Part shown: positions 16,653-42,774 of the stretch, in pieces
Numbering within the stretch: position 1 is the first letter of the stretch
Layout of the letters: the number at the start of each line of letters is the position of its first letter
Origin: Escherichia phage EC.P2
Strand: one strand, 5' to 3'
Sequence record: PQ631072.1
DNA: 64,000 bases
Made by a program: the position numbers and the translations under genes
The notes under the pieces: model-generated
What the model was told of the DNA's origin: nothing
The model's database searches: none
Seen by the model: the letters and a program-made list of their open reading frames with translations, nothing else

Positions 16653-18632
16653 TTGTTAGAAATTAACACTTCCAAGATTAAGAATACAGTAACGTTTACT
16701 GTAGATAAAGACAGTTTAAAAAATACTAAAGACGCAATTAAAAACCTTAAAACTTTTACAGAATCTATTGAACCATCTTTAAATATGACTAAAATGCGTC
16801 GTCAGTTTAAAAGTATGGAAGAGTATGCTAAAAGAATAAGGCAGCAAATGTCAGGTCTTGGCGGCGGTAATCCTCCACCAATCCCACCAACCGGAGGTTC
16901 AAGTGGTGGTGGAAAAGGAGGAAGTGGTAGAGGTGGTTCTGGATCTTCTGGAGGACGTAAAACACCAGAAGAAAGAGCCGCAGAAGCCGCCGCTAAACGT
17001 GCAGCACTTGCTAATATGAAGCAAGACGATTTTAGTTTTAAAGCTATGCCTTTTACAAAAGCAGACAGCAGAATTCTAGAAAAATCTAAAAAGATTGTAG
17101 AAGAAACTGTTGAACTTTATCGTAAAGGTGTAATCACTAGCCAACAAATGAATAACACTTTGGCTAGACAGTTAGAAGAACTACGCAGATCTCATAGAGA
17201 GAAGAATGCACAACTTCTTGATGAAGAGAGAGCTAGACGTAGAATTGCCCGTCTGCAAGAAGCAGAAGATAAAAGAAGACAGCGTATCCGAGAAAGAGAA
17301 AGAAAGGATTTCGAACGTCAGCAAAGAAGAGAGAAAGAAGCAAGACAACGAGATAGACAACGTAAACTATCTGGTGTAGGTAATGCTGCTATTGCTCTTA
17401 ACCCTGCTATGTTTGGTGCTGCTCTTTTAGGTGCTGGTTTATATCAAGGTATAAGCAAAATAGCTGAAAATATTACAGCGGCGGCAGAACGTATTAATAT
17501 GGTTAGTAAAGGTGGTCAGAACGTACAGGTAAACCCTAACGCAATTTTAACAATGCGTACTTGGGGTGAAATGAACGGTGTAGACTCTGCCAGCATTATT
17601 AAAGCCATTGACAATATTAAAGACGTTCGTGAACGTTTAGGTAATACTGTACTCCACTCTGAATTTGATGAAAAATCAGGTAAATGGAAAGGTGGAGACA
17701 GTGGTATTAATGAAATCATGAACCAATTTGGTTGGTCGAAAGAAGATGTTGCTAAATTCCAGAACAGACCTCTAGACTTTGTTCAAGCACTTGTTAATGA
17801 AGGTCAAAAAAGAGGAATGAACTCCGCGCAAATTGGTCGTTTGATGGAAAACCTTGGTGATGACTTAATGCACTACCAACGTATGTTTTTGGATAACGGT
17901 AAAGAGTACATGAAAGTCTTGGATATGTTAAAAAATTCAGGAGCAACTCTTAACGATGAAAACATCAAAGCAGCACAAGATTTTGTTAAACTAAGAGCAC
18001 AAATTAGTGCAGCAGGAGAAGGTTTTACCAATAACTTACTTGTAGGGTTTATGGATGGTTTAAAATCTGCACCAGATTTTGCAGAAAATATGAAAACTTT
18101 CCAAGAAGCTGCTCGTGGTCTTGGTGAAATGTCTGGTAGTATTGTAAGTAGCCTTGCAAAAATTGCGAAATATTTCCTTGATTTTTCAAATAAGGTTGGG
18201 CCAAAAAACAATACTAAAGAAGCTGTAAGAGATTATTATAATGGTACGCAGTATGGGTACGATGCACAGGTTGGTGGTAATCCTTGGGCTTATTGGCCTA
18301 TTGGAAGAGATCAATATAAACCTGAAAATCAACCTTTAGGTGACTTTGATAGTAGTTTCTTAACTAGCGCCTTAAATCCAAGTGCTTCTAGTATTGGTTA
18401 CAATAGACCTGATTTAACAGCATCTATGCTAACACCACGCCAAGGTGTTCCAGTACCGTTAAGTCTAGAGAATACGGTTGTTATCCCAGACAACGCATTC
18501 CAGATTAATGTTATTCCAGATGGTTATGGTTTTAGTAATTATCTAGATGCGACAATGAATACCAGTTTTAGTAACTTCTCACAAGGTTTAACTCTTCAGT
18601 TAAGTAGTGGACAATCTTCTACTGGTGGTTAA
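16653..18632 (+). CDS. tape measure protein (putative)
   Basis: 659-aa ORF after chaperone pair; Gly/Ser-rich low-complexity stretch, Arg/Glu-rich coiled-coil segment, hydrophobic segment. Confidence 0.5.
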   Translation: MLEINTSKIKNTVTFTVDKDSLKNTKDAIKNLKTFTESIEPSLNMTKMRRQFKSMEEYAKRIRQQMSGLGGGNPPPIPPTGGSSGGGKGGSGRGGSGSSGGRKTPEERAAEAAAKRAALANMKQDDFSFKAMPFTKADSRILEKSKKIVEETVELYRKGVITSQQMNNTLARQLEELRRSHREKNAQLLDEERARRRIARLQEAEDKRRQRIRERERKDFERQQRREKEARQRDRQRKLSGVGNAAIALNPAMFGAALLGAGLYQGISKIAENITAAAERINMVSKGGQNVQVNPNAILTMRTWGEMNGVDSASIIKAIDNIKDVRERLGNTVLHSEFDEKSGKWKGGDSGINEIMNQFGWSKEDVAKFQNRPLDFVQALVNEGQKRGMNSAQIGRLMENLGDDLMHYQRMFLDNGKEYMKVLDMLKNSGATLNDENIKAAQDFVKLRAQISAAGEGFTNNLLVGFMDGLKSAPDFAENMKTFQEAARGLGEMSGSIVSSLAKIAKYFLDFSNKVGPKNNTKEAVRDYYNGTQYGYDAQVGGNPWAYWPIGRDQYKPENQPLGDFDSSFLTSALNPSASSIGYNRPDLTASMLTPRQGVPVPLSLENTVVIPDNAFQINVIPDGYGFSNYLDATMNTSFSNFSQGLTLQLSSGQSSTGG

Positions 18633-18639
18633 TGCATAA

Positions 18640-18666
18640 AGCCTCGCTTCGGCGGGGCTTTTTATT
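18640..18666 (+). terminator. rho-independent terminator
   Basis: 8-bp hairpin with TTCG loop (AGCCTCGC/GCGGGGCT) followed by T-run. Confidence 0.65.
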
Positions 18667-18670
18667 TGTC

Positions 18671-18700
18671 TTGACAAAGAGTTGTTTTTCGTGATAAAAT
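18671..18700 (+). promoter_or_regulatory. sigma70-type promoter with extended -10 (TTGACA ... TGaTAAAAT)
   Basis: TTGACA 18671-18676; TG 18692-18693 and TAAAAT 18695-18700. Confidence 0.5.
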
Positions 18701-18747
18701 GAGTGATAAGGGAGAATGTTTCTTATCACATTAAGAGGTAAAATTAT

Positions 18748-19458
18748 ATGGCAGCAAACACTCCAGAACAACACGTTCAAGCGGTTTATAAAGCGGAACA
18801 AGATATAAACTCTACAAAAAACACAAATAACTCTGCCTCTACTGTGAAAGGGGAGAATGGTTTTTGTATTTTAGCAAGTGTTTACAATAGTGCAAGTGAT
18901 CAATATATTCAAAACTACCAGGCTATAGTTTTTGATGCTGTTCCAAATATCGGTGTAAAACGTCAAGCAGATGTAACTAGTTATCCTGTAGAAAATGGTG
19001 CTAATGTATCGGATCACGTTCAAGTTAAGAATAATACTTTCTCTTTATCAGGAATGATTACAGAGACACCTGTAAGATTAATGCGAGATATGCTATATAG
19101 TGCTGGTGTTAACGGTACTCGTATCAGTCAAGCAATTACTTACTTAGATAAAATATTTGATGAAAGACAGCCTATCATTTTAATAACAGAACATAAGGTG
19201 TATGAGAATGTTATTTTGAAAGGCATATCATATGAATATCAAACAGAATATGCAATGCAATTTGACTTGGAATTTGAACAAGTAAGATTAGTTTCCTACG
19301 GGGAAACAAATGCTATTGCACTTAAGACAAAACCAAATAAGAATACAGGTGTTAAAAACAAGAAAGGTACTAGTCCAGATGCTGATTTGGATGCAAGAAC
19401 AGGGAAAGCAACTGGTACAGAACATCTTAGTGATCACAGTGCAGATGGTAAAAAATAA
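18748..19458 (+). CDS. tail/baseplate protein (hypothetical)
   Basis: ORF with AGAGG RBS downstream of promoter. Confidence 0.45.
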   Translation: MAANTPEQHVQAVYKAEQDINSTKNTNNSASTVKGENGFCILASVYNSASDQYIQNYQAIVFDAVPNIGVKRQADVTSYPVENGANVSDHVQVKNNTFSLSGMITETPVRLMRDMLYSAGVNGTRISQAITYLDKIFDERQPIILITEHKVYENVILKGISYEYQTEYAMQFDLEFEQVRLVSYGETNAIALKTKPNKNTGVKNKKGTSPDADLDARTGKATGTEHLSDHSADGKK

Positions 19459-25645: not shown

Positions 25646-27805
25646 ATGAAACAGGCTATTTTTACTGTAACTCGAAATACGAGAGTAAATGCCAGTTCAT
25701 TCAGCTATAAGACCGTCGATGGAACGGCGGTCGCTGGTAGAGATTATGTAGCTAAACAGGGAACAGTAACGTTCCCTTCTGATGCAGATTCTGCTACTGT
25801 AGTGGTTGATGTATATGAACGTCCGGCAAACTCTTTAGATCTTTATTTTACTCTTGAGATTACTAGCATAAGTCAAAATAACATGATGATCAATGAAGAA
25901 ATTCGTTGTGTTATTACGACTGATCAATCGAATACAACCCCGCTAACTTGGCCTGTTGTGAAGTCTAGAATGTTTGATCCTAAGTTTTGGACAATAGATT
26001 CTCAAGCAACAGAAAGTTGTTCTATTATCTCTAATGGTGATTCTTTCACAGCAAGAATGGTTAATAGGACAGTGGCTGGTCTTGCTGGGATTATTTGGTC
26101 AACTTACGATAAATATGATCACAAAGGATTAGGCTACCAAGAACATTCTGACTTAAGTAAAGAGAAACTTTGGTTTAAAATGGAACTTAGTCAAGGTGTT
26201 CCTGGATTAAAAGAAGAAAAATTAATACCATCCTTAACAGTGACACTGAAGGATGAAACAGTTCATTATGTATCTCTAAACTTTTATGCAGAAGAAGTTT
26301 CAGAAGATGGTAAGACAGCAACAATCAAATTAGATTTCTCAAACTTAAAATCGGGGCCAGAAAATGATATTGTTGTTGACACTACACAAATAGATAATAT
26401 GTTCTTCTCCTTGATCTCAACGAGGTATCAAGAAATTGAAGATATTATTCCTGTAGACAATGAGGATCTTTCCTTTAAGTTTACCATACTGGAGCCTGAT
26501 ACTGGTTACAGTATGATGAATATGGGTAATTTAAATGTTCCAGCACACACCATAAGAATGTGTACATCTTATGATGATATGTATAACCTGACCCCAGAGC
26601 GAGTTATTTCTAACACCTACAGATTAGGTTATAGGGATATGATTAACCACTATAATGGTATGTCACACTATTATCAGTTTAGTTGGGATGCTGGTTCTAA
26701 TAAATGGGCTTTGAATAGAACAGAATATTTAAACCCAGCAACAGAAGCATGGTTTGATAATTTCCACGCTAATGCAAAAGCTATGGGCTACACAGTAATG
26801 AATTCCTTAAGTTTTGAACTTATGAGTACAGTGTGTCCTGTAGAATGGGTACAACATGCTTGGAATGATGATCTTGCTGCTACAGGTTATGAGCCACCAA
26901 GTTATGTTTTATCTCCTTCAATTGATGAAGGGATGAATTATTTACAAGGTGTAATAAATAAGATAGCTTCTATATCCGCTGCTAATGATCTTCCAGTTAT
27001 TATTCAGGTTGGTGAACCGTGGTGGTGGTATAACACAGCTACCAATCTACCGTGTATTTATGATTATACAACCAAAGTTGCATTTAATAATGAAACTGGA
27101 TTGTATGCACAAGATGTTGGTACAGTTAAAAATTATAAAACTGGTACACCATATGATGAATATTATGCCTTCCTATCTAAAACATTAGGACTGCGTGTTG
27201 CTAAATTTGCAACAGATACCAGATTAGCATATCCTGGAGCTAAAGTTACATTGTTACCATTTGTGCCATCCATTTTGGGTAATGGTATGATGGAGTTTGT
27301 TAACTTCCCTAAAGATTATTATATCCCAGAAAACTTTGACTTTTATTGTTCAGAATGTTATGATTGGTTGTTGGAAGGTAAGATGGAAAGATCTTTTGAC
27401 GCTATCACAATACCTAATGAGCAACTAGGTTTTAGTTATGATAAGATACATTATCTTGCAGGGTTTGTTCCAGATGCAACTCTAGCACCATTATATGGCT
27501 TTGATCCTGAATCAAACTATAGAACATATTTGTGGAAAATGATTATAGGCAATATTGTATTGAATGACCAGAAGTTTGTTGGTTTATATCAATACATATG
27601 GGCTTACCCGCAAATAATGCATGATTCAATAACTGTTCTTAATTCAAAATCCCAAGTGTTTTATATGGGTAATGTGCCTTTGAATTGCTACTTGCAAGAT
27701 ATCACTCTTAAACAGGTAAATGTTGAGATTGCCACTATAAGTGGAATTACATTAGCCACTAAATCTGGAGAAGATTTAGTAACAACACAAAAATTTTATA
27801 TATAG
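25646..27805 (+). CDS. tail fibre/tailspike protein (719 aa)
   Basis: ORF with AAGGA RBS in receptor-binding block. Confidence 0.45.
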   Translation: MKQAIFTVTRNTRVNASSFSYKTVDGTAVAGRDYVAKQGTVTFPSDADSATVVVDVYERPANSLDLYFTLEITSISQNNMMINEEIRCVITTDQSNTTPLTWPVVKSRMFDPKFWTIDSQATESCSIISNGDSFTARMVNRTVAGLAGIIWSTYDKYDHKGLGYQEHSDLSKEKLWFKMELSQGVPGLKEEKLIPSLTVTLKDETVHYVSLNFYAEEVSEDGKTATIKLDFSNLKSGPENDIVVDTTQIDNMFFSLISTRYQEIEDIIPVDNEDLSFKFTILEPDTGYSMMNMGNLNVPAHTIRMCTSYDDMYNLTPERVISNTYRLGYRDMINHYNGMSHYYQFSWDAGSNKWALNRTEYLNPATEAWFDNFHANAKAMGYTVMNSLSFELMSTVCPVEWVQHAWNDDLAATGYEPPSYVLSPSIDEGMNYLQGVINKIASISAANDLPVIIQVGEPWWWYNTATNLPCIYDYTTKVAFNNETGLYAQDVGTVKNYKTGTPYDEYYAFLSKTLGLRVAKFATDTRLAYPGAKVTLLPFVPSILGNGMMEFVNFPKDYYIPENFDFYCSECYDWLLEGKMERSFDAITIPNEQLGFSYDKIHYLAGFVPDATLAPLYGFDPESNYRTYLWKMIIGNIVLNDQKFVGLYQYIWAYPQIMHDSITVLNSKSQVFYMGNVPLNCYLQDITLKQVNVEIATISGITLATKSGEDLVTTQKFYI

Positions 27806-27813
27806 GAGTAAAA

Positions 27814-29979
27814 ATGTCAACTACAATTACTAATTTACCCGAAACATCAAAAGTTAATGGTTCAGATTACCTGGTTTTAGATCAACCTGATAAAACTGTT
27901 AAAAGCACAGTTTCCAACTTTCTTACTGACACTGGGGTGGTTTTAGCCACCCAGTTGAAAGATACAGATGGAGCAGATTTAATACAATCCTCAAATGGTA
28001 ATACTGTTCAGGAAGAGTTGAATAACAATCTTCTTAATGATCGTGAACAGTGGCGTCGTAGTCTTGCTGAGGCAGGGTTAACCCTTGTCAACGGTAGCTT
28101 TGAAGAAGGGGCTACAGTAAACAATAAGACGGATGCTGTTTGGCATATTGCTGGTGGGCAGTGCTATACGTGGGATGGCGAGTTCCCTAAAACTGTTCCT
28201 GCCGGATCAACCCCAGGAACATCTGGTGGTATTGGTACTGGAGCGTGGTTGAGTGTTGGTGATGCAACATTAAGAACAGAATTGTTATCTGTTAATGGTG
28301 CTGTAATTCAATCTTTTAACAGTGTTTCAGACATGAAATCTTACAATATAACAGCAGGAAGAACATATCATACAAAAGGATATTGGGCAGAAGGTGATGG
28401 TGGTGGTGCTCTATATTATGTCACAACTCCGTCAGGAGACGAACCAAATGGTTATAGCGATCACAAGTCTGAAAATGGTTTATACATTCGTTTGTTGTCA
28501 GAACCTACTGATTTGAATCATGGGGTTAAGATTAGCGATATTTATGACCCTGAAACGGCAAGGTGGAATCGAAACGCGATCCAAACTATGTTGCGTGATA
28601 CCCGCTGGAGCTATACCGAATGTAAAGCACAAGGCGTAATTTATCTTTTGGGTAGTGTAAATGTAGGTAGAGATAATATCACATTCAAAATCAACAAAGG
28701 GTGCTCGCTTAAAGGTAGGTATTCAGATCCTAGTATTTCAACCCCAGATCAAGGTGGACACATGATAGGATTCGCTAAATTTTTCGACCCGGATAATGGT
28801 GATTTTATACCATGGAGAGATGGTGATACACGTATTAACCCTTATATAGAAAATGTACATGTTATTTTAGAAGGTGACGTATCTACTGAATTTAACGACA
28901 GCCATATAAACAAATATAACAATAACTGTATAGGGTTCCTGAAGGCTAAAAATTGCAGTATTCGTGGTACAGGTGGTTCATCATCCAGCGACCATCGAGC
29001 TTTTAACTTTGACGGCATAGACACTAATGCCCCCAATGGCTCTGAAAACAGAGGTGGTAGCATTAATTGTCATATTGATGTTGGTTATTCTTACAATTGT
29101 GTAGACAACCCTTGCATGATTGCTGCTGACCAATTCACCGCAAGTAGTTGCAGCATTAAAATCGGCGATGTGCGTAAAATGGTAGCAGGTGGTTATAACA
29201 GTCCGATTGTTATAAATGTATCCGGCATCTCGCATTTCGATATTAATATAGGTAGATTTTTGGTTGATGGTGGTGTCACACCAGCGTTAGTTGTAGCTCG
29301 TGGCGCTCGTTCAGTTAACGTAACAGGTGGTGTTATACAGGGCTGTACAATGGGTGTGTATTCTGTAGATACCCTGGATATTTCTTTAAACATTAAGGAA
29401 ATGTTTAATGTACCAATAGGTGTTGCTGTTGCAAATAACAGCACTATCGGCCCGAGAAGTATTATTATTCGTGGAATTAACGCAGTTAACTCCAGCTTTT
29501 CCGCTGCTTATGCGCATCAAGCATCTGCATTACCAGCAGCATATGTCGAAATAGCTGATAATAACTTCAGTGCCGCTTCTAGTTCATTTAAGTTTATTGG
29601 TGGTAAAACTTCAGGAAACACTCCTAAAAGACAAAACATTCATGACAATGTTACATCTTCTACGGGAGATGGTGGTCAAGATCTCAACTATTTGCCAGGC
29701 ACTCAGAAAAACATTATAGGAGGTAGTTCAACTACTAGTCTCAGTGTCAACTTTAAAGATGGCAACTGGAATTTCACAAAAGCGACCGTAGTTGCTGGGC
29801 AAGGTGGTGGGCGTGGTATTGCCACCATTGATCTACTTGCTAAAGGCGTTTCCAGCAACAGCATGGTTATAAGGGCTGGTGCTTATGATGTCACTGTAGC
29901 TATGCCTGCCAATGGAAATACGCTGACAGTTAGCGTAGTGTCGCCAAACTTCATTGATTATGTGACGCTTCATAATTAG
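27814..29979 (+). CDS. tailspike protein with conserved N-terminal anchor modules
   Basis: Shares N-terminal motif with 22288 ORF and a Y-x-W-x-G-x-x-P-K-x-VPA-x-STP-x-x-GGI motif with 36790 ORF. Confidence 0.55.
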   Translation: MSTTITNLPETSKVNGSDYLVLDQPDKTVKSTVSNFLTDTGVVLATQLKDTDGADLIQSSNGNTVQEELNNNLLNDREQWRRSLAEAGLTLVNGSFEEGATVNNKTDAVWHIAGGQCYTWDGEFPKTVPAGSTPGTSGGIGTGAWLSVGDATLRTELLSVNGAVIQSFNSVSDMKSYNITAGRTYHTKGYWAEGDGGGALYYVTTPSGDEPNGYSDHKSENGLYIRLLSEPTDLNHGVKISDIYDPETARWNRNAIQTMLRDTRWSYTECKAQGVIYLLGSVNVGRDNITFKINKGCSLKGRYSDPSISTPDQGGHMIGFAKFFDPDNGDFIPWRDGDTRINPYIENVHVILEGDVSTEFNDSHINKYNNNCIGFLKAKNCSIRGTGGSSSSDHRAFNFDGIDTNAPNGSENRGGSINCHIDVGYSYNCVDNPCMIAADQFTASSCSIKIGDVRKMVAGGYNSPIVINVSGISHFDINIGRFLVDGGVTPALVVARGARSVNVTGGVIQGCTMGVYSVDTLDISLNIKEMFNVPIGVAVANNSTIGPRSIIIRGINAVNSSFSAAYAHQASALPAAYVEIADNNFSAASSSFKFIGGKTSGNTPKRQNIHDNVTSSTGDGGQDLNYLPGTQKNIIGGSSTTSLSVNFKDGNWNFTKATVVAGQGGGRGIATIDLLAKGVSSNSMVIRAGAYDVTVAMPANGNTLTVSVVSPNFIDYVTLHN

Positions 29980-33993: not shown

Positions 33994-34335
33994 ATGGAGC
34001 TAACAGAAGTATGGGATATCGCTAAAGAGGCGATTATCCCTCTTATTGGTGTAATCTGGGTGGTCTTCAAACAGAAGATAGATGATATAGCAAGTGATTT
34101 GGATAAAATGGAAGACAAATACCGTGAACTAGAAAAGAAGTTGGTGTTTGTTGAATCCACTTATGCTACCAAAGCAGAACTTGCTCAAATGCTTAACCAG
34201 ATCAACTCTACATTAATGGCAAATAATACTGCCTTAGAACAGAAAATTGAAAAAATAATGGATTTAAAAAATGCTCCTGTTCAATTAATGCTAGAGGAGA
34301 TTACGAAGCGCACACAAAGTAAGGACAAAAATTAA
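33994..34335 (+). CDS. hypothetical coiled-coil protein
   Basis: 113 aa, charged heptad-like sequence. Confidence 0.4.
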   Translation: MELTEVWDIAKEAIIPLIGVIWVVFKQKIDDIASDLDKMEDKYRELEKKLVFVESTYATKAELAQMLNQINSTLMANNTALEQKIEKIMDLKNAPVQLMLEEITKRTQSKDKN

Positions 34336-36749
34336 TGGCGAATTTTCCAACATATCCTGCTACGACACTAGAACAAGGTGTTGATCTGGTTATATTCTCG
34401 TCTAACCAGATGCATGATGTTATTAACGGGGATGCTACAGCAACTGTAGAAACCGAAACAGGTTTAATACCTACACTGCGTAAAGCACTTGTTGATAACT
34501 TCTTCTTTAAGAGTCCTGTTGCTTGGTCAGCAGGATCAACTGAAACTGTATTTAACCAGTTACGTTATTTTGAAAACGGCATCTTGAGTGGGTACTACTA
34601 TGCCCCATCTGCCACTACTGCGAACCCTGTACCTATGCAGGGTACACCTGTAGGAGACAGTAACTGGACTCTGTATGCTCTTAAAACTGAACAGTTAGCT
34701 TCAGATGTGTATCCTTGGTATTTTAAAGGTGCTACAGGGTATGAGACAGAAATCAGTCCTCCTTATATCTTTGATAATGCTATTGTCACCATTAACGGTG
34801 TAATTCAGATTCAGGGTGAAGCATTTACTATCAAAGATAGTAAAATTATTCTGGCAGAACCATTAGGTTTAGATCCGTCTACTGGTCTACCTAACAAATT
34901 GTTTGCTTTTATTGGTAAAACAACAGCCTCTACTTCTTACGTAGAGAAAAACCTTTTGTCATCTACCACTGGTGCAGCAATGGTTGGTCTTCCATCTGGA
35001 GGCAACCTGTTACAAGCTCAATACTTTGTAACGCCTGAGCAGTTTGGTGCAATTGGTGATGGAGTTACCGATGATACTCAAGCAATTCTAAAAACCATTA
35101 CTTTCGCTAACACGAATAACATTCAAGTACGTGCAGATAAGAATTATAGATTCACAAGCTCAATTGCTATGTCTGGTATTCGTTGGTATGGTGGTACATT
35201 CACTGGTAACGGTGGAACAATGATTTCTACTGTGTCCTGTTGGATTGAAAACGTTCGCTTTGAAAAATGTTATGTTAAGATGTTAGGTGGTGATTGCCGA
35301 TTCTATCGTAATATCTTCTCCAACGCAACATCTACAGCAGCATTCTTAATGCAAGCAATGACAAGTGAAGGTACGTTGGACTTCAGTTACAACGAAATGT
35401 ATGGTTGTAAATATGCGATCCTGCAACAAGGTACTGGAGAAGTAATGACCTATGGGCGTTACTCTAACAACTATATTCACGATATTAAAGGTGATGCTAT
35501 TGAACTTAACGTAGTTCAAAGACACTACACTGAAGGTTTGATCATCGAGAATAACCACATTGCTAACGTAGATGCTTCTGGACAAGGTGCAAACTGGGGT
35601 ATTGGTATTGGTGTAGCAGGTAGTGGCCCATATGGTGTTGATGCTCCTGATTCACAATATGTACGTAACTTCAGTATCGTTGGAAATAGAGTTTACAATT
35701 GCCGTCAATGTCTACACGTTGAAATGGGTAAAAACTTCACAATACGTGATAACGAAGTTTATCCTAACACAGCAGTTTCAACAGGTACAGGTTTAACTAC
35801 TTGTGGTGTTGCATTATACGGATGCCAAGACTTTGAAGTTGATGGTTTAACTGGTTATCTGCTTAATGATCCGTCTGTTTCAACACGCATGGTCTTTATT
35901 GACTGGGGTGTTAACGGTGGAAGATATGCGGGGCCACCAATTAACTTTACAATTAAGAATTTGGATATTCCAGAATCTTCGATTGAGATTGCAACGGCTG
36001 GATCAGACGCCTGGGAAAACTCTACAATTGTTAGTAACATCAATTGTAATGATTTTAAATGGCGTGGGCTACCATCTAGCTCTACTTTTAATAATATTCG
36101 TTGCCGTAGTATTGACTTTATTGGTCAACACGGAAGCGGAGAAGGAAGTGGTGGCGGTTTCTATACTCGCAGCCAATTCACTTATATGAAGTGGGTAGGA
36201 TGTACAGCACTTAGCGGAGATGAAACAACAGTTTCTTTTGCTAAAATCTACACGGATCGTTGCGATCAGGTTGGAAATAACTTTGGTGTTCCAACTGCTG
36301 TTGATGGTACAGGTCATCGTGGGCCAGTCTTAACCACTATTTCTGAACAATATTTTACAGATTATGATGAATTCCCAGGTGGGCGTGACTTCCCTACTGG
36401 AACAGTTATTCATTGTGCAAGCGGTAAAAAACACGTTGTTACAGTAGGTGGTGCTTTCTTTAGTAATAATGAGAAAATAAAAGCAACTGTTACAGGTCAA
36501 ACCTATCTACAGTCTAATGCTTTAAACTGGGCTAGTAATGGCTACGCTAAAGCGGCAGGTACTAAGATTGTTATTCCAGGTGCAGGAGCAAATGGTGGCG
36601 ATCTTGTGACAACTATAGCACGTGCTACGTATGTGACAAATAGTTTGTACACAATAGATATTGCAGATCCAATTGTAACACCTACAGCAGAGAATACACA
36701 AATTAAAGCTCTGAACCCTGTTACTTTTGTTACTGTCAATAATGCTTAA
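34335..36749 (+). CDS. tailspike with pectate-lyase-like beta-helix (putative depolymerase)
   Basis: Contains FGAIGDGVTDDTQAI, the hallmark motif of pectate-lyase-3-type beta-helix domains found in phage depolymerases. Confidence 0.6.
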   Translation: MANFPTYPATTLEQGVDLVIFSSNQMHDVINGDATATVETETGLIPTLRKALVDNFFFKSPVAWSAGSTETVFNQLRYFENGILSGYYYAPSATTANPVPMQGTPVGDSNWTLYALKTEQLASDVYPWYFKGATGYETEISPPYIFDNAIVTINGVIQIQGEAFTIKDSKIILAEPLGLDPSTGLPNKLFAFIGKTTASTSYVEKNLLSSTTGAAMVGLPSGGNLLQAQYFVTPEQFGAIGDGVTDDTQAILKTITFANTNNIQVRADKNYRFTSSIAMSGIRWYGGTFTGNGGTMISTVSCWIENVRFEKCYVKMLGGDCRFYRNIFSNATSTAAFLMQAMTSEGTLDFSYNEMYGCKYAILQQGTGEVMTYGRYSNNYIHDIKGDAIELNVVQRHYTEGLIIENNHIANVDASGQGANWGIGIGVAGSGPYGVDAPDSQYVRNFSIVGNRVYNCRQCLHVEMGKNFTIRDNEVYPNTAVSTGTGLTTCGVALYGCQDFEVDGLTGYLLNDPSVSTRMVFIDWGVNGGRYAGPPINFTIKNLDIPESSIEIATAGSDAWENSTIVSNINCNDFKWRGLPSSSTFNNIRCRSIDFIGQHGSGEGSGGGFYTRSQFTYMKWVGCTALSGDETTVSFAKIYTDRCDQVGNNFGVPTAVDGTGHRGPVLTTISEQYFTDYDEFPGGRDFPTGTVIHCASGKKHVVTVGGAFFSNNEKIKATVTGQTYLQSNALNWASNGYAKAAGTKIVIPGAGANGGDLVTTIARATYVTNSLYTIDIADPIVTPTAENTQIKALNPVTFVTVNNA

Positions 36750-36789: not shown

Positions 36790-38760
36790 GTGATTTTAAC
36801 ACGTCCAAATAGTGCCATTGCAGACATGGTAGAGTCTCGCTATAGAAAGCGTAGAAGTTTTGCAAGTGGTTTTACCTTAAGAGATGCTCGTGAAGCATTG
36901 CTCTTTGAAGCTGACGGTAACTACTATCAGTGGAAAGGTTCTCTACCTAAAGTTGTACCTGCTAACTCTACTCCTACATCCACTGGAGGGATTTCAGATA
37001 CAGCTTGGAAAAATGTGGGTAATGCAGATGACATTGCTCAAATAGAATCAGAATTAGATGCTATTGAAGCTGAAATTGAAGATCTTAGAGAATCCATCCC
37101 AGAAGCTGGTAAATCAGCTTACCAGATTGCCGTAGACAATGGTTTCCAAGGTACTGAGACACAGTGGTTGGCTTCTTTAAAAGGTGATCCAGGCGCTCCA
37201 TTAAAGCTATTAGGGACACTATCTAATACCAACCAATTACCTACAAGTGGAAACAATGCAGGGGATGCATGGATTGTAGGCGAGAATATGTATGCTTGGG
37301 ATGGTACTGCTTGGAGAAAAGTAAACTCACAGGGGCCAGAAGGTAAGTCTGCTTATGAAGTATGGCTTGCAGCAGGAAACCAAGGTACAGAACTAGACTA
37401 TCTTGCTTCAATTAAAGGTGATAAAGGGGAGCCTGGCCCAGAGGGGCCACAAGGTGTGCCAGGTAACAATGCTAATGGTTTTGATTACCAAGGCGCAGCT
37501 AATTCCGTTTCAGATCTTCCTTCTGCATCTCATGGAAACACATCTCAAGCATGGAGTGTTGGTACATATCTATACGTGTCAAACGGTGTAGAATGGATCA
37601 ATATGGGCGCTATAGTGGGGCCAAAAGGAGATAAAGGCGACAAAGGAGATAAGGGTAACACTGGTGATTCAGCTTATCAAGTCTGGTTAAATGCTGGTAA
37701 CGTTGGTACTATTGACGAATATATTGCCTCTCTGAAAGGAGAAAAAGGTGATAAGGGAGACAAGGGTGATCAAGGTGCACAGGGTATACAAGGCTTGACG
37801 GGGCCAACTGGTGCAGGGTTGACCATTATTGACATTCTGACTAGCACTTCTGAACTGCCACAAACTGGGGAAGATGGTGATGGTTATCTGATCAATAGTG
37901 AACTTTGGGTCTGGTTGCAAGGAGCCACAGAGTGGACAAATGTTGGTCGTTTAGCTGGTACTCCAATCACTGCAAAAGGACACGTTGCGTCTGCAAGTGC
38001 GCTTCCTCCTACAGCCAATTACGGTGATGCTTATCTGACGGAAGATACAGGTCATCTTTACATTTACACCTATAATGAACAAACTCAAACTGCTGAATAT
38101 GTAGATATGGGTAGTTTGAAAGGTGATAAGGGTGAAAAAGGTGAGAAAGGTGACGCTGGTACTAACGGTACAGACGGTGCAACTTGGATTGTTAAAACAA
38201 CAGATCCAATCTCTAGTGATGGTAAACAAGGTGATTATGCCTTTAATATCTCCACTGGCGAGGTGTTCTTAAAAACATCTGCAACTGTCTGGACTTCTCA
38301 AGGTACACTACCTAGTATCACAGATGCACCTAGTGATGGTAAGACTTATGCTCGTAAAGATGGGGCATGGGAAGAACTCACTAATTCTGTAGATGGTCAA
38401 GATATAGTTCCAACAAAAGTAACAACTAATTTTATAGAGGTTACAGCATATACCAACAATTCTGTTACAGGGGACTGGACACCTCCAGGAACACATAACA
38501 TGAATGTGTTGAATCTTACTGGTAACGCTACTATAAAAGCATGGCCTGGTGTCGAAGATAGTACAAAACCTAAACCATTCTCTGCAATAGTTTATCTTAT
38601 CCAAGATGCCACTGGAGGTCGTACTGTTACTTTAGATCCATCTTACAAAGTAATTGGTTCCAGTGATATTAATACAGATCCTAACGGAGTAACAATACTA
38701 CAACTAACATATTGTGGTGTTGGCGATTACGTGGATGCTATTGTTGCTAAACGCACATAA
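36790..38760 (+). CDS. collagen-like repeat tail fibre protein
   Basis: Multiple Gly-X-Y tracts (GDKGEPGPEGPQGVPG, GPKGDKGDKGDKGNTGD and others) and three tandem SAY...GTE...LAS(L/I)KG(D/E) modules. Confidence 0.65.
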   Translation: MILTRPNSAIADMVESRYRKRRSFASGFTLRDAREALLFEADGNYYQWKGSLPKVVPANSTPTSTGGISDTAWKNVGNADDIAQIESELDAIEAEIEDLRESIPEAGKSAYQIAVDNGFQGTETQWLASLKGDPGAPLKLLGTLSNTNQLPTSGNNAGDAWIVGENMYAWDGTAWRKVNSQGPEGKSAYEVWLAAGNQGTELDYLASIKGDKGEPGPEGPQGVPGNNANGFDYQGAANSVSDLPSASHGNTSQAWSVGTYLYVSNGVEWINMGAIVGPKGDKGDKGDKGNTGDSAYQVWLNAGNVGTIDEYIASLKGEKGDKGDKGDQGAQGIQGLTGPTGAGLTIIDILTSTSELPQTGEDGDGYLINSELWVWLQGATEWTNVGRLAGTPITAKGHVASASALPPTANYGDAYLTEDTGHLYIYTYNEQTQTAEYVDMGSLKGDKGEKGEKGDAGTNGTDGATWIVKTTDPISSDGKQGDYAFNISTGEVFLKTSATVWTSQGTLPSITDAPSDGKTYARKDGAWEELTNSVDGQDIVPTKVTTNFIEVTAYTNNSVTGDWTPPGTHNMNVLNLTGNATIKAWPGVEDSTKPKPFSAIVYLIQDATGGRTVTLDPSYKVIGSSDINTDPNGVTILQLTYCGVGDYVDAIVAKRT

Positions 38761-38763
38761 TCA

Positions 38764-38788
38764 AAGCCCCTTCGGGGGCTTATTATTT
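38764..38788 (+). terminator. rho-independent terminator (TTCG loop)
   Basis: AAGCCCC-TTCG-GGGGCTT hairpin followed by T-rich tract; same 18-mer in minus sense at 60865-60882. Confidence 0.6.
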
Positions 38789-38799
38789 AAGGAGATTAA

Positions 38800-41619
38800 A
38801 TGTATCCTATTCCTTTATTTATGTCAACAACATCAGCTTCAGTAGTAACAGCTACATCTATAACCACTTCCTCTATTGGTATTGCAATAGTTGGTAGTAA
38901 AAAGCAACTGACATACACAGTTTCACCGGAAGATGGTGCGTTATTTGATATAGCTTTTTCATCTTCAGATAATACCAAAATGGTTATAGATAATAACGGT
39001 ATGATGGAGTTTGTTGCTGAAGGCGGTTTTGATGCAATAATGACAGCTAAAAATAATTTAGGTGCTGTCTTAACTGATCAATCTGGTGGCTATGCTTCAG
39101 AATTAAGTGTGTACACTGAAAGTCTGTCTGCTATGGATGCAGGAACTACTCAACAATTGGTTGCTACAATCAGTCCAGAAGGTGCTAAAGACCTTCCAGA
39201 CATGGTAATTACGTACACCACAACAGATCCAGAAGTAGCTACTGTAAGCCCTACAGGATTAATAACTGCTCTTAAAGATGGCAGTTGCCGTATAGGTTGT
39301 ACTGCAACTTATCAAGGAACAGTGGTGGCCTCTGATAGTTCTTATTTAGGTGTTAATGCTATTCCTGTTATTTCTAATGTAACAGCCGTGGCAAACAGCT
39401 ATGGAGACATTCGTGTTGCTTGGGATGTAGCTGATCCGCTAGATGGTGATACTTATACTGTAGAAGTATTAGATTTAAGTAATAACAGTGTCCAGTGGAC
39501 TACAACAACCACGAATACTTACGCCTACTTTGATATCTCTGACTCTATTCCTCTTTATGGGTTTGCTCCAACATACCTTAAAATTAGCGTTAAGAGCACC
39601 AAAGCAGCAGCCGTTATCTTTAATAACTCAATAGCTACAGATGATTCATTCATTAAAGAAGTTATTGTCTTTGCTGGACAAGATAACGTAAATGCACACT
39701 TTACAGAACTATCTGGTGCAAATAAAGCAGCAATGAGTAGCACAACAACCCGTAACGCATATGCTACGCAACGTGGTTTAGCAAATGCTGAAGTTCTTCC
39801 GTTAAATACAGCTTCTGGATCATCAGCAGCAGATAAATATGCTGACGATAAAGCTGGAACAGGTACACCAGACAACTACTGGTATGATCTGGATAACACA
39901 GCAGATGGGCCATGCTTAACTAATTTTATCACTAAAGTCACACCTTATGCAAGTAAGGTTAAAGCAATTATTTGGGGACAAGGTGAAAATGATGCTGTAT
40001 CAGCATCTTCAACTGTTGCAGGTAGGTACAGTAACACTACACGTTACCATGATGCTACGATAGCCATCTTTGATAAGATGCGTACAATAGTTCCTGCTTC
40101 TCAAGCAAAAATTGTTTGGCAGATCCTAGGACGTTCTTATCTATATGGTGTAGAAGTTAATGGTGTAGATTGGCAGAAATACAGAAATGTACAAAGAACC
40201 ATCTCTACAGCACGTGACGATGTTATCATTGGTTCTTGGGTAGATGGTGCTGAACGTTACAGTGGCTATGCTTATGAAGAAGGTATTGATGGTCGTATCC
40301 ATTATATTTCTTCTGTATACCAGACAGCAGCTACAAAACTTGCTAAATCAGCAGCAGACGGTACAGACCTAACATCAACGTCACCTGTTTGGGTTGATAT
40401 GGCTGTTCCAACTGGAGCAACAGCTACTTCCCAGTCTAATCAAGATACAATTTTAGCATGGGATGCTCAAGGTTATAGTAAACACTACTTCCGTAATATT
40501 AACGTCTTAACAGCATCTGTATTAACTGAACAAACGCTTAATACGAACAGTTATACGTTTACCTATGCAGATCAAGTAGAACAATATGGTTTTGCAGCAG
40601 GTACTACGATATTTGATGTTGCATATTATGACGAAGCAAATGATGTGTTATCTCCTTTAGTACGTTTTAATGTTAGCGTTACAGCAGGAAAAGTAGAAGA
40701 TAAACCTGTCGTGATGGACTATGATTTGACACAAGAAACTCTTCCATCAGATGTTAAGGTTAATGGTGGGAACTCTTTTGCTCGTGCTTCTGGAGATACA
40801 CTTGTAGCCACTAACACCTTGGTTGCTCCGTTGGAGTATGTTGGCACTACCCCTGTAGGTAGACGTGTAACAGCTAACACAGCTACACAAATTTTTGTCA
40901 ACAACGCCTTAACAAGCGCAAGCCCGTGGGTAAAGACCAACTTAACTGTTGCATCTTCATCTGATAAATCTCCGGCTGGAACTACTGCTAATGTATTCAA
41001 ATTAACTCCGACTACAACTTCTGGTAGTCATATCTTAACTGCAACATATACTAACGCGTACAACATATCTGCCGGACGTAACTGGTCTGCCTCTGTTTTC
41101 TTGAAAGCGAACGGGATTACTAAGGCCAAACTAAGATTAAAAGCAGGGACTGAAGTTAATGAAGGTACTTTTGATTTAGCAGCAGGTACATTCACAGGAA
41201 GTGAAGCTAATATTATATCTATGGGCAACGGTTGGTATCGTGCTATTCTGCATAAAACAGGAATAGCCAAACAGTCCTCCATAAGTTTTGAAATAATTGC
41301 CTTGGATGCAACTGGTGCGGAGATTTTCGCTGGAGATGGTACTAGTAACCTTGCAGTTTGGTTGCCACAGCTTGAAGGTGCTTCTACAGGAGAAACATCA
41401 AAAGCTGGATCGCCTTATGTCTGCACATATCCTGGAAATTTAGGAGGAGTATCCTTCACTATACCAAGGAACGGACATACTGGTGTGGATGTTTACTATT
41501 CCAACGGAGACGTTGTTCGTGACGTATTCTCTGGTACGGCATCTACTTGGACAATAAACTACTCCAGCTTGTACGATTGGGGATCAGTCTTTATTACAGG
41601 TTTGAAATATTACGACTAA
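38800..41619 (+). CDS. tail fibre protein with Ig-like domains and SGNH/sialate-O-acetylesterase-like domain
   Basis: N-terminal Big_2-like repeats; FAGQDNVN and IWGQGENDA motifs about 110 aa apart resemble the GQSN / W-QGE-D esterase signature. Confidence 0.5.
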   Translation: MYPIPLFMSTTSASVVTATSITTSSIGIAIVGSKKQLTYTVSPEDGALFDIAFSSSDNTKMVIDNNGMMEFVAEGGFDAIMTAKNNLGAVLTDQSGGYASELSVYTESLSAMDAGTTQQLVATISPEGAKDLPDMVITYTTTDPEVATVSPTGLITALKDGSCRIGCTATYQGTVVASDSSYLGVNAIPVISNVTAVANSYGDIRVAWDVADPLDGDTYTVEVLDLSNNSVQWTTTTTNTYAYFDISDSIPLYGFAPTYLKISVKSTKAAAVIFNNSIATDDSFIKEVIVFAGQDNVNAHFTELSGANKAAMSSTTTRNAYATQRGLANAEVLPLNTASGSSAADKYADDKAGTGTPDNYWYDLDNTADGPCLTNFITKVTPYASKVKAIIWGQGENDAVSASSTVAGRYSNTTRYHDATIAIFDKMRTIVPASQAKIVWQILGRSYLYGVEVNGVDWQKYRNVQRTISTARDDVIIGSWVDGAERYSGYAYEEGIDGRIHYISSVYQTAATKLAKSAADGTDLTSTSPVWVDMAVPTGATATSQSNQDTILAWDAQGYSKHYFRNINVLTASVLTEQTLNTNSYTFTYADQVEQYGFAAGTTIFDVAYYDEANDVLSPLVRFNVSVTAGKVEDKPVVMDYDLTQETLPSDVKVNGGNSFARASGDTLVATNTLVAPLEYVGTTPVGRRVTANTATQIFVNNALTSASPWVKTNLTVASSSDKSPAGTTANVFKLTPTTTSGSHILTATYTNAYNISAGRNWSASVFLKANGITKAKLRLKAGTEVNEGTFDLAAGTFTGSEANIISMGNGWYRAILHKTGIAKQSSISFEIIALDATGAEIFAGDGTSNLAVWLPQLEGASTGETSKAGSPYVCTYPGNLGGVSFTIPRNGHTGVDVYYSNGDVVRDVFSGTASTWTINYSSLYDWGSVFITGLKYYD

Positions 41620-41623
41620 TAAA

Positions 41624-41652
41624 AAAGGAGCCATTAGGCTCCTTTTCTTTTA
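41624..41652. terminator. bidirectional rho-independent terminator at convergence of plus and minus transcription
   Basis: 9-bp hairpin AAAGGAGCC-ATTA-GGCTCCTTT flanked by A-run upstream and T-run downstream. Confidence 0.7.
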
Positions 41653-41654
41653 TC

Positions 41655-42086
41655 TTAATCAGTGAAAATTACGCTTACATCTTCTTTAGAAAAGAGTTTA
41701 TGATTTTCACCTTTTGTCTCAAGAGTTTCATACAGGTTAAGAAGTTCTGAAACATCTTTCTCTACTAGTTTCTTCAATGTTGCAATTTTCTGTTTGCGAT
41801 TCTTAATACGTTCAGCTACAACCTTACGTTGGTATCCGGCAGTACGATAACCTGAGAAAGTTACACCAGTGAGACTTGCAGTTACAGGATCGTAGTGACG
41901 TTCAATCTGAAATTTATTAAAAGGTACAGCGTCATCACGAATAATCTTACCGCCATTACTTACTTGACGAAGACCAGTAACTTGTTCCAGTCGTGCCATA
42001 GAAATCTTTGGAGACAGACCAGAGTCCAGGTTCATACCGTTGTTAATCAGTGCTTTCAGGGTGATTTTGCTGTTCAGTGTACTCAT
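41655..42086 (-). CDS. hypothetical protein (143 aa)
   Basis: Start at 42086 has GGAGGA RBS; overlaps 3' end of methyltransferase gene by 44 nt. Confidence 0.45.
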   Translation of the reverse strand: MSTLNSKITLKALINNGMNLDSGLSPKISMARLEQVTGLRQVSNGGKIIRDDAVPFNKFQIERHYDPVTASLTGVTFSGYRTAGYQRKVVAERIKNRKQKIATLKKLVEKDVSELLNLYETLETKGENHKLFSKEDVSVIFTD

Positions 42087-42774
42087 TTAGTCGTTCCTCC
42101 GCTTGTTTAAAAATATTTACATCGGCTTCACAGCCTAAGTATTCTCTACCTGTTAAAAGTGCCGCAACTTGTGTTGTTGCACTTCCAGAGAAGAAGTCTA
42201 AGACTACATCTTCTTCGTTGGTATGTATATTAATAAGGTCACAAAACAAAGTCAAGTGTTTTTGTGTTGGATGAAAACGATCTGCTCCTTGATAGATAGG
42301 ATACTCAAACACACCCTTATGATAGGAAGCATTGAAGGTTGGCTTCGAACCTTTAACACAGACAATAGCCATCTCTTTAGCGTTACTAAGGTAGTTAACA
42401 CCACTGTTGATGGGTACAGGGTTTGTTTTAATCCATTCAATAGTACGGAACATACGAAAACCAAGCGGTTCAAGGATTTCACGTAGCTCCTGGATCTTCC
42501 AGATATCATACCAAACTATGCAAGTACCACCTTTTCTAAGCACCCTATAGGCTTCTTTGAATACTTCTTTAAAGTAAGGAATATCTACAACATCCCAGTC
42601 ACCAAAGTTGTAAGATACACGGAATCTATCTGTATCTTTTCCAGTAGGCTCTCCAGATTGAAAATTTGTGTCACGAGAAATAGCATAGGGTGGGTCAGTA
42701 AGAATCAAATCTACACTATTGCTTTCGAGGGTTTGCAGGTAGTTTAATGCGGTGTTGTTTACAAATTCGCTCAT
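42043..42774 (-). CDS. DNA methyltransferase, beta-class (N6-adenine or N4-cytosine)
   Basis: Motif IV DPPY near N-terminus (LILTDPPYA) followed by motif I FFSGSATT near C-terminus; AAGGAG RBS. Confidence 0.85.
   Translation of the reverse strand: MSEFVNNTALNYLQTLESNSVDLILTDPPYAISRDTNFQSGEPTGKDTDRFRVSYNFGDWDVVDIPYFKEVFKEAYRVLRKGGTCIVWYDIWKIQELREILEPLGFRMFRTIEWIKTNPVPINSGVNYLSNAKEMAIVCVKGSKPTFNASYHKGVFEYPIYQGADRFHPTQKHLTLFCDLINIHTNEEDVVLDFFSGSATTQVAALLTGREYLGCEADVNIFKQAEERLNEYTEQQNHPESTD

Follow-up and report, generated by a model that had tools for sequence, protein, structure and literature searches.

The gene at positions 38800 to 41619 (plus strand) of the window, the 64,000-nucleotide stretch of Escherichia phage EC.P2 (record PQ631072.1) analyzed here, encodes a 939-residue modular protein of the tail-fibre cluster, whose central domain has the SGNH esterase fold with an aspartate at the position of the catalytic serine. 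SGNH domains are already known from phage receptor-binding proteins; the present one is a nucleophile-less variant. We think it probable that the product is a modular fibre protein in which the serine-less SGNH domain is a non-catalytic module and a C-terminal lectin is the main specificity determinant.

Genomic context and annotation

EC.P2 belongs to the Justusliebigvirus (phi92-like) E. coli myophages, and the window is 97-99% identical to W22, BME3, PHB05, alia and PaulScherrer. The gene closes the baseplate/tail-fibre module, right behind a colanidase tailspike gene and a collagen-like fibre gene (36790-38760), and is followed by a convergent gene on the minus strand (41655-42086). The ATG is preceded, at a distance of 5 nt, by the ribosome-binding site AAGGAG (38789-38794). 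The gene lies between two terminator-like hairpins on the plus strand. The upstream one (38764-38781) separates it from the collagen-like fibre gene and has a 7-bp stem with 5 GC pairs and a T-rich tail; the downstream one (41623-41646), with a 10-bp stem, separates it from the convergent gene, at a place where the Paula and PATM records annotate a terminator. A promoter scan gave sites that were no commoner than in shuffled sequence.

The reading frame is shared with orthologues annotated as "BIG2 domain-containing protein" in alia and "lateral tail fiber protein" in PaulScherrer; phi92 gp153 is a 295-residue fragment of the orthologue. The best PHROG families, 32204 and 11922, are both described as "tail protein", and residues 10-199 also match PHROG 215, "structural protein with Ig domain", of the head and packaging category. 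In some GenBank records the protein is labelled "tail carbohydrate esterase", presumably by automatic fold-based annotation. Literature searches on phi92 gp152, on "tail carbohydrate esterase" and on "non-contractile tail sheath" with SGNH found nothing. Synteny and annotation suggest that the protein is carried by the tail and not by another part of the virion, in agreement with the initial annotation, which had described a tail-fibre gene.

Domain organization

The N-terminal segment and two Big_2 Ig-like domains occupy residues 1-189 (38800-39366). Pfam Big_2 (PF02368) matched in two stretches with 51.9 bits (E 7e-14, gathering threshold 22.8), the best being residues 113-170, and in the alignment to P0119 the whole region is 58% identical to the short homologues of Phapecoctavirus type. 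Residues 190-280 (39367-39639) are assigned, by inferred fold class, to a first FN3/Ig-like beta-sandwich; they align to residues 619-700 of N4 gp65 and were modelled as seven beta-strands with a pLDDT of about 80. The SGNH/SASA-type domain follows at residues 283-525 (39646-40374), and a second, putative FN3-like domain at residues 530-630 (40387-40689), which aligns to N4 gp65 residues 985-1059. This second domain was poorly modelled. The modelling results for both FN3-like domains come from a first AF2 model that was built from 6 close homologues (word-indexed search, residues 190-640) and had an overall pLDDT of 54; it was replaced by a model based on an exhaustive profile search and a 34-sequence alignment. 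The remainder is a C-terminal variable module, residues 640-939 (40717-41616), with a GTA head-spike-fibre, ConA-like lectin core at residues 694-863 (40879-41388). All these features are on the plus strand. Thus, the Ig-like repeats and the beta-rich C-terminal region that had been proposed at the two ends of the protein were both recovered.

The central domain is a serine-less SGNH homologue

The AF2 model of the central domain displays a three-layer alpha/beta/alpha, flavodoxin-like SGNH fold with a pLDDT of 94.7 (34-sequence alignment), and a BFVD model made independently for the orthologue in alia (A0A6B9X4H6) superposes on it with a TM-score of 0.96. The esterase fold that the initial annotation had expected from structure prediction was thus found. 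A profile of the domain family collected 113 relatives with the consensus FAGQSNAxGHF ... W(A/S)QGExDA. The HMM check with Pfam SASA (PF03629), which had been proposed for the domain, gave a divided answer: the EC.P2 sequence itself remained below the threshold of 24.8 bits (14.2 bits over the complete protein and 16.9 bits when the domain was scored by itself), whereas 23 of the 34 aligned relatives matched (E up to 0.01; best 2.4e-14). Because of these matches and of the GQSN consensus of the 113 relatives, the likeness to O-acetylesterases is attributed to homology and not to chance. From sequence and model, we judge the domain to be truly homologous both to carbohydrate O-acetylesterases of the SASA type and to the SGNH-like domains in N4 gp65.

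The two motifs highlighted in the initial annotation are SGNH blocks I and III, and they start 100 residues apart, not about 110 as had been given. Block I, FAGQDNVN (residues 291-298; 39670-39693), was placed with the family profile, its GqsN being aligned to GQSNMAG of 1zmb and 2apj. Block III, IWGQGENDA (residues 391-399; 39970-39996), aligns to ILWHQGESD of 1zmb and LWYQGESD of 2apj. Block V corresponds by alignment to DGRIH, from Asp497 to His501 (40288-40302), and His501 (in DGRIHY) aligns with the histidine of DGVHF in the peptidoglycan O-acetylesterase Ape1 (4k3u). The glycine of block II (G340) and the oxyanion-hole residues of block III (Q394-G395-E396-N397-D398) are also present by alignment. 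Therefore, apart from block I, the aligned signature residues of the EC.P2 copy are intact (G340, Q394, N397, D398, D497 and H501). In block I, however, the nucleophilic serine of GQSN or GDS is missing and its position is taken by Asp295 (39682-39684), whose codon, GAT, is at least two nucleotide changes away from any serine codon. The proposed resemblance to the catalytic signature of O-acetylesterases thus holds as homology, but the signature is not intact, and the candidate serine suggested within GQDN does not exist.

Serine loss and selection across the family

The state of the block I position was taken from representatives at 50% identity and five phage records. In the wider family, 60 of 81 domain copies have serine and 8 have aspartate. 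Aspartate occurs without exception in the Justusliebigvirus copies examined, and the rV5-like orthologue has it too. The rV5-like copies TH18 and P0001-5 have diverged further: block I reads GGDN, G340 is replaced by I or A, Q394 by L and N397 by Q, and in some copies His501 by Q. Serine and histidine co-occur (both present in 18, serine without histidine in 0, histidine without serine in 6, neither in 9; Fisher p about 1e-4). Moreover, many family members contain tandem copies of the domain, GxSN being kept in only one of them. The phi92-like and rV5-like versions form one monophyletic Asp clade in a neighbor-joining tree (no bootstrap). On this tree the change from serine to aspartate appears to have occurred once, in their common ancestor, and independent origins in the two groups were rejected.

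Among four Justusliebigvirus pairs, the SGNH domain has a dN/dS of about 0.05-0.07, calculated from few substitutions (3-4 non-synonymous vs 12-19 synonymous), which is the lowest value of all domains of the protein. The domain thus appears to be under strong purifying selection, and the reading of a decaying relic was ruled out by these ratios. The pocket motifs NYWYD, W-QGE-D and Asp295-Asn296 are invariant between the two clades at 47-52% identity. That Asp295 persists across about 52% sequence divergence suggests a role for the aspartate itself.

Modularity and the C-terminal lectin module

The FN3-SGNH-FN3 cassette is optional. It is absent from homologues of Phapecoctavirus type, such as the P0119-type form, in which Big_2 domains and a C-terminal module make up a protein of 436-496 residues, with clean junctions near residues 188 and 632. 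Conversely, short natural alleles of 628-647 residues end right behind the cassette, the 628-residue form being found in PD06.

Residues 694-863 score 69.5 bits with NF048003 (GTA_spike_fiber; E 5e-19), for which the cut-off is 36 bits. A profile of homologues of the C-terminal module matches the RcGTA head spike fibre 6tb9 (E 8e-76), and such homologues also carry PF13385. The tail fibre 9occ gp17 and the baseplate wedge proteins 8env and 9b45 contain the same type of domain. About 75 residues (865-939) lie C-terminal to the NF048003 match. When EC.P2 is compared with EmilieFrey and 92CQ, dN reaches 0.28-0.30 in the C-terminal module, with upstream domains that are nearly identical. From these alignments, it is the C-terminal domain that differs between phages which are otherwise almost identical. 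This exchangeable lectin domain is probably the main determinant of host-glycan specificity.

Comparison with known systems

A close and well-described relative is N4 gp65 (PDB 9lc0, 9yf4 and 9yf5), a 1382-residue receptor-binding protein of 10 domains that binds NfrA and, with gp64, forms a non-contractile, hexameric sheath around the podovirus tail (PMC13434306). Both are modular virion proteins of E. coli phages, with homology over FN3, SGNH and FN3 (BLASTP E 4e-14, 22% identity over residues 192-610, with a further match at E 5e-13); identity reaches 30% in gp65 residues 428-603. The SGNH domain finds gp65 with a profile E-value of 1e-73 and, by Foldseek, with E 2e-13 and a TM-score of 0.78. 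Unlike gp65, the EC.P2 protein has Big_2 domains and a lectin tip, belongs to a contractile-tailed phage, and lacks NCTSP_N (PF23844) and the NCTSP TIM-barrel (PF23845), two domains which are found in another gene of the window (25646-27805). Of the two SGNH copies in gp65, the first retains serine (FAGESQ) and the second is without block I, whereas the EC.P2 domain has aspartate; the second gp65 copy is a precedent for a degenerate SGNH copy within a solved virion. Judged by analogy, the string of Big_2, FN3, SGNH, FN3 and lectin domains looks like that of a monomeric modular protein of the gp65 kind.

The SASA family (1zmb, 2apj, NanS 3pt5, mammalian SIAE 8f9p/8f9r) has the same motif layout, GQxN ... 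WxQGExD ... His. In contrast to its members, the EC.P2 domain has aspartate for the serine of GQSN, scores below threshold and sits between FN3-like domains of a virion fibre protein. SGNH esterase tailspikes and fibres of G7C (gp63.1, 4qnl), of Pectobacterium phage Possum, and of Moo19 and B2 reportedly have a catalytic serine and demonstrated deacetylase activity; the EC.P2 domain is without this serine. These esterases belong to other SGNH subfamilies and form trimeric tailspikes. The BASEL papers reportedly describe a "glycan deacetylase" fibre linked to N4 Gp64 and to the NGR glycan. The 939-residue protein was ruled out as this fibre, its BLASTP match to gp64 being limited to E 0.025 over 60 residues; the gp64 TIM-barrel homologue of the window is the product of 25646-27805. 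Finally, in RcGTA Rcc01080 (6tb9), too, a ConA-like module sits distally on an appendage of the virion, but the carrier protein and its attachment differ.

Function of the SGNH-like domain

In the explanation that we favor, the gene product would serve its phi92-like myophage as a receptor-binding or fibre protein of the beads-on-a-string type, composed of an N-terminal anchor, two Big_2 Ig domains, the FN3-SGNH-FN3 cassette and a ConA-like "head-spike-fibre" lectin tip. The SGNH-like domain would no longer be a working Ser-His acetylesterase. Since the pocket has kept most of its motifs (NYWYD, W-QGE-D, the Q of IVWQ, and GR), the domain probably binds glycans without catalysis, as a lectin does, or serves as a rigid spacer; with the catalytic serine replaced by aspartate, a sugar-binding or scaffold module would be likelier than a working deacetylase. 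The initial annotation had proposed that the fibre deacetylates a surface polysaccharide receptor. This is doubtful, since the nucleophile is missing and the rV5-like sister copies have lost further catalytic residues. Deacetylation does not appear to be the most likely function, because aspartate has replaced serine and is fixed in both clades, and because serine and histidine are lost together.

Intact signature residues and strong constraint would also be expected if the enzyme were still active by an altered mechanism, and a nucleophilic aspartate is known in some alpha/beta-hydrolase-fold enzymes. Asp295 or another residue might thus replace serine, either by activating water together with histidine or as the nucleophile itself, in an active carbohydrate O-acetylesterase acting on the receptor polysaccharide. 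The closeness of the fold to SASA-type esterases, the intact blocks II, III and V in Justusliebigvirus, the purifying selection, the invariance of Asp295 and Asn296 in both clades and the public "esterase" label would all fit. We nevertheless consider this unlikely: the nucleophile position has no serine, the EC.P2 protein is below the SASA threshold, serine loss accompanies histidine loss family-wide, and we know of no SGNH hydrolase with an aspartate nucleophile described so far. Moreover, rV5-like orthologues share the aspartate but have lost Gly, Gln and Asn, and some of them His; whatever function the clade has conserved can therefore not rely on Ser and His as catalytic residues. A more speculative proposal, to which we give a low probability, makes Asp295 the center of a new use of the pocket, common to all the broad-host-range coliphages of the rV5-like and phi92-like groups. 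The aspartate, with His501, would act as nucleophile or general base, or the esterase would have turned into a lectin whose carboxylate recognizes a conserved glycan of enterobacteria through a group that is cationic or de-acetylated. If true, the catalytic form would be the first Asp-type SGNH hydrolase.

The domain could also be nothing but a rigid spacer from an N4-sheath-like ancestor, with no ligand of its own, receptor contact being made by the C-terminal lectin in long alleles and by other fibres in short ones. Indeed, N4 gp65 builds a sheath with two such domains, one of them fully degenerate (PMC13434306), tandem copies with a single GxSN are frequent in the family, and the cassette can be absent. 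However, the short alleles have the cassette at their distal end, which would be odd for a mere spacer, and both the pocket motifs shared by the two clades and the lowest dN/dS of the protein argue against this reading, which we rate as rather improbable. Very unlikely, finally, is a place on the head or neck, where the protein would be a decoration fibre instead of a tail fibre; its Ig domains and "head spike fibre" tip would then be comparable to Hoc-type proteins or the head spikes of RcGTA. The name of the C-terminal family and the match to PHROG 215 point that way, and the literature search turned up no data on virion location. Against it stand the place of the gene behind the colanidase tailspike and collagen-like fibre genes, the "tail protein" PHROG families, the occurrence of the same C-terminal domain in tail fibre and baseplate wedge proteins, and the homology of the central cassette to a tail protein, N4 gp65.

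Significance

Phages of the phi92-like and rV5-like groups are candidates for phage therapy owing to their very broad host range, and the roles of their individual fibre genes are still not sorted out (PMC8594841). Since the nucleophile is missing, the label "tail carbohydrate esterase" should not be taken as enzymatic activity. A sensible target for host-range engineering would be the exchangeable C-terminal lectin module, not the esterase-like domain. The comparison also connects the podovirus sheath of N4 with fibre proteins of myoviruses, as combinations drawn from a common, reshuffled stock of domains, and the central domain would provide a natural case of an esterase fold held under selection after loss of its catalytic serine.

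Genomic context and domain organization

Nucleotides 38800-41619 (+) form a single ORF of 939 aa, with a ribosome-binding site (AAGGAG) 5 nt upstream and terminator-like hairpins directly before (38764-38781) and directly after it (41623-41646). This is the final plus-strand gene ahead of a switch in strand and GC skew near 42 kb. The skew changes sign at a convergent minus-strand pair (41655-42774), composed of a 143-aa ORF similar to phi92 gp154 and a 243-aa DNA methyltransferase-like ORF overlapping by 44 nt; hairpin 41623-41646 is common to this pair and the fibre gene.

Upstream, a colanidase-like tailspike (34335-36749, +, 804 aa), the orthologue of the phi92 gp150 colanidase, matches PHROG 6117 'colanic acid degradation' (E 4e-270) and ends in a TSP_Ig-like domain. 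The next gene (36790-38760, +, 656 aa, GTG start) immediately precedes ORF 38800-41619 and encodes a fibre with an N-terminal Tail_spike_N domain of TSP1/gp66 type. This fibre also contains collagen-like repeats (GDKGxK) and a recurring 'AYQVWL..G..G' module, and it matches Fibritin_C weakly. Tail_spike_N is also found in ORF 27814-29979, a hint that attachment may be branched, as in the Ackermannviridae. The 939-aa protein itself is presumably located on the tail.

The N-terminal Ig-like repeats described in the initial annotation were recovered as two Big_2 domains, which together with an N-terminal segment occupy aa 1-189 (Pfam, 51.9 bits vs a cut-off of 22.8). They are followed by a seven-stranded beta-sandwich (aa 190-280, pLDDT about 80 in an AlphaFold2 model distinct from that of aa 275-540 below), an esterase-like domain (aa 283-525), a second FN3-like domain (aa 530-630) homologous to the one after the SGNH-like domain in phage N4 gp65, and a C-terminal module (aa 640-939). 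The core of this module (aa 694-863) corresponds to NCBIfam NF048003 'phage head spike fiber domain' (69.5 bits vs 36). A profile built from its homologues matched 6tb9, the head spike fibre of RcGTA (E 8e-76), and also 9occ (gp17, a tail fibre) and the baseplate wedge proteins 8env and 9b45; several of the homologues contain the ConA-like Laminin_G_3 family PF13385.

Fold of the middle domain

The middle domain has an SGNH/SASA fold. Against Pfam SASA (PF03629), the profile proposed in the initial annotation, the query itself scored below threshold (14.2 and 16.9 bits vs 24.8), but 23/34 aligned family members matched (best E 2.4e-14). An exhaustive profile search gave 113 relatives, with the consensus FAGQSNAxGHF ... 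NYWWD ... W(A/S)QGExDA ... IQxxGR ... IHYxxxxYH; at NCBI, one of the family is listed as 'sialate O-acetylesterase' and one as 'non-contractile tail sheath protein'. An AlphaFold2 model of aa 275-540 based on the family alignment (pLDDT 94.7, pTM 0.92) had the SGNH fold and superposed with TM 0.96 on the independent BFVD model of the orthologue from phage alia. Foldseek ranked N4 gp65 first (E 2e-13, TM 0.78) and SASA-type esterases next. The two motifs noted initially are present, FAGQDNVN at aa 291-298 and IWGQGENDA at aa 391-399, but 100 rather than about 110 residues apart.

In many large relatives (1000-2270 aa; P0008, P0012, P0013, P0022, P0029, P0030, P0035, P0043 and P0045) the domain occurs two or three times in tandem; as a rule GxSN is kept in one copy and the others are degenerate. 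Among these proteins is one from a Xanthobacter prophage, named 'non-contractile tail sheath protein'.

Replacement of the catalytic serine

The catalytic signature that the two motifs were initially said to resemble is not intact. The family-profile GqsN aligned to GQSNMAG of 1zmb and 2apj, and the serine position is occupied by Asp295, whose GAT codon is at least two changes away from any Ser codon. Across 81 family domain copies this position is Ser in 60 and Asp in 8; among the latter are the clade of the query and the first copy in P0012 (FCGDDQ). PD06, ALITA, EmilieFrey and 92CQ share GQDN with the query; the motif reads GGDN in rV5-like phage TH18 and in P0001-5, which are metagenomic relatives. 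In an NJ tree both Asp groups fell together, with P0009 (GQSN), P0010 (GQAN) and P0011 (GQSN) as sister, and because of this joining the tree indicates that Ser was probably replaced by Asp in a single event.

The other signature residues are kept in the query phage (G340, Q394, N397, D398, D497, H501), His501 aligning to the His of DGVHF in O-acetylesterase 4k3u. Because all other catalytic residues are intact, the initial proposal of an active deacetylase retains some weight; with the nucleophile replaced, we consider it unlikely, and the domain would lack esterase activity. In the rV5-like sister clade G340 is changed to I/A, with Q394L, N397Q and D497N, and H501Q in TH18, P0001 and P0004. 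Family-wide, His is present in 18/18 Ser copies and lost in 9/15 Ser-less copies (Fisher p about 1e-4; 8e-5 with near-identical sequences collapsed). Most simply, the canonical members would be Ser-His enzymes, and Ser-less copies would have been freed from enzymatic constraint. Copy 2 of N4 gp65 would be such a case: it lacks block I (the nucleophile motif) entirely, yet is a structural part of a solved virion.

Among the Justusliebigvirus isolates compared, no other part of the protein has a dN/dS as low as that of the SGNH-like domain (0.05-0.07), from small counts (3-4 non-synonymous vs 12-19 synonymous differences). Both Asp clades, at 47-52% identity, retain NYWYD, W392, G395-E396, D398, the Q of IVWQ and G-R without change. 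The domain thus retains a function, and a conserved pocket lacking the nucleophile is compatible with a role in binding as well as with altered chemistry.

Relationship to the N4 sheath proteins

The family profile matched the solved N4 tail sheath gp65 (N4 15044-19192) with E 1e-73, in tandem copies at aa 439-602 and 757-984. By BLASTP, query aa 192-610 correspond to gp65 aa 619-1059 (E 4e-14) and aa 277-451 to gp65 aa 428-603 (30% identity). PMC13434306 describes gp65 as a 10-domain receptor-binding sheath subunit with gp64 as partner. Taken whole, ORF 38800-41619 is no orthologue of gp65: NCTSP_N (PF23844) and the TIM barrel (PF23845), domains specific to the sheath, are found, with Calx-beta, in ORF 25646-27805 (+, 719 aa), which is homologous to the gp65 N-terminus and to gp64 aa 107-367 (30% identity, E 6e-31). 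In this myophage the sheath domains of podovirus N4 are divided between two distinct fibre genes.

The BASEL papers describe an N4 Gp64 homologue as a 'glycan deacetylase' fibre tied to the NGR glycan. We rejected ORF 38800-41619 as this fibre, the Gp64 homologue being ORF 25646-27805, which is probably the NGR-linked one.

The first SGNH-like copy of gp65 (aa 439-602; FAGESQ, Ser kept) covers only profile positions 14-173, without the His block. Residues 17-77 of gp64 (N4 13758-15011) match positions 185-246, precisely the stretch absent from that copy, with IHF among them (E 5e-4), and for this reason the gp64-gp65 heterodimer may assemble a single SGNH domain out of both chains, possibly with an intact Ser-His site.

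Modular alleles

Comparison of the window's gene with phage loci L002, L003, L005 and L006 and homologue P0119 placed allele breakpoints near aa 188 and aa 630-640. Three natural architectures occur: Big_2-FN3-SGNH-FN3 (628-647 aa; PD06, TH18), the same with a lectin tip (933-942 aa; window, EmilieFrey, 92CQ), and Big_2 fused straight to the tip (436-496 aa; P0119-P0121 and Phapecoctavirus-type hits). Over aa 1-191 P0119 shares 58% identity with the query, and over aa 632-939 it shares 81%. Between phages with near-identical upstream domains, the C-terminal module reaches dN 0.28-0.30, a divergence that would be the signature of an exchangeable specificity module. The second FN3 domain is strongly divergent in PD06 (dN 0.17). 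The ALITA gene is annotated as two CDS (2160 and 519 nt) at 97.6% identity, which suggests a frameshift or sequencing error.

Public records and proposed role

The gene is 97-99% identical in DNA to those of Escherichia phages W22, BME3, SD2, PHB05, Paula, alia, inny and PaulScherrer, all phi92-like Justusliebigvirus myophages. Two records call the product 'tail carbohydrate esterase'; names used elsewhere are 'tail protein', 'putative tail component protein', 'lateral tail fiber protein' and 'non-contractile tail sheath'. The EmilieFrey copy is annotated with 'intimin and glycosidase domains', the alia orthologue is a 'BIG2 domain-containing protein' in UniProt, and phi92 gp153 is a 295-aa fragment of that protein. 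Public records already hint at the esterase fold. SGNH domains are well known in phage receptor-binding proteins (G7C gp63.1, Possum, Klebsiella and Acinetobacter phages). Our literature search found no paper analysing this protein; the BME3 paper mentions only a 939-aa 'tail fiber' differing from phi92. The modest novelty lies in the missing serine, the domain family common to N4 gp65 and the optional cassette.

We favour, with reasonable confidence, a modular fibre. The Ig domains would provide reach, and the exchangeable C-terminal ConA-like domain would recognize a variable surface glycan. The conserved, nucleophile-less SGNH-like domain, sharing its ancestry with the N4 sheath domains, would serve as a non-catalytic glycan-binding or scaffold unit.
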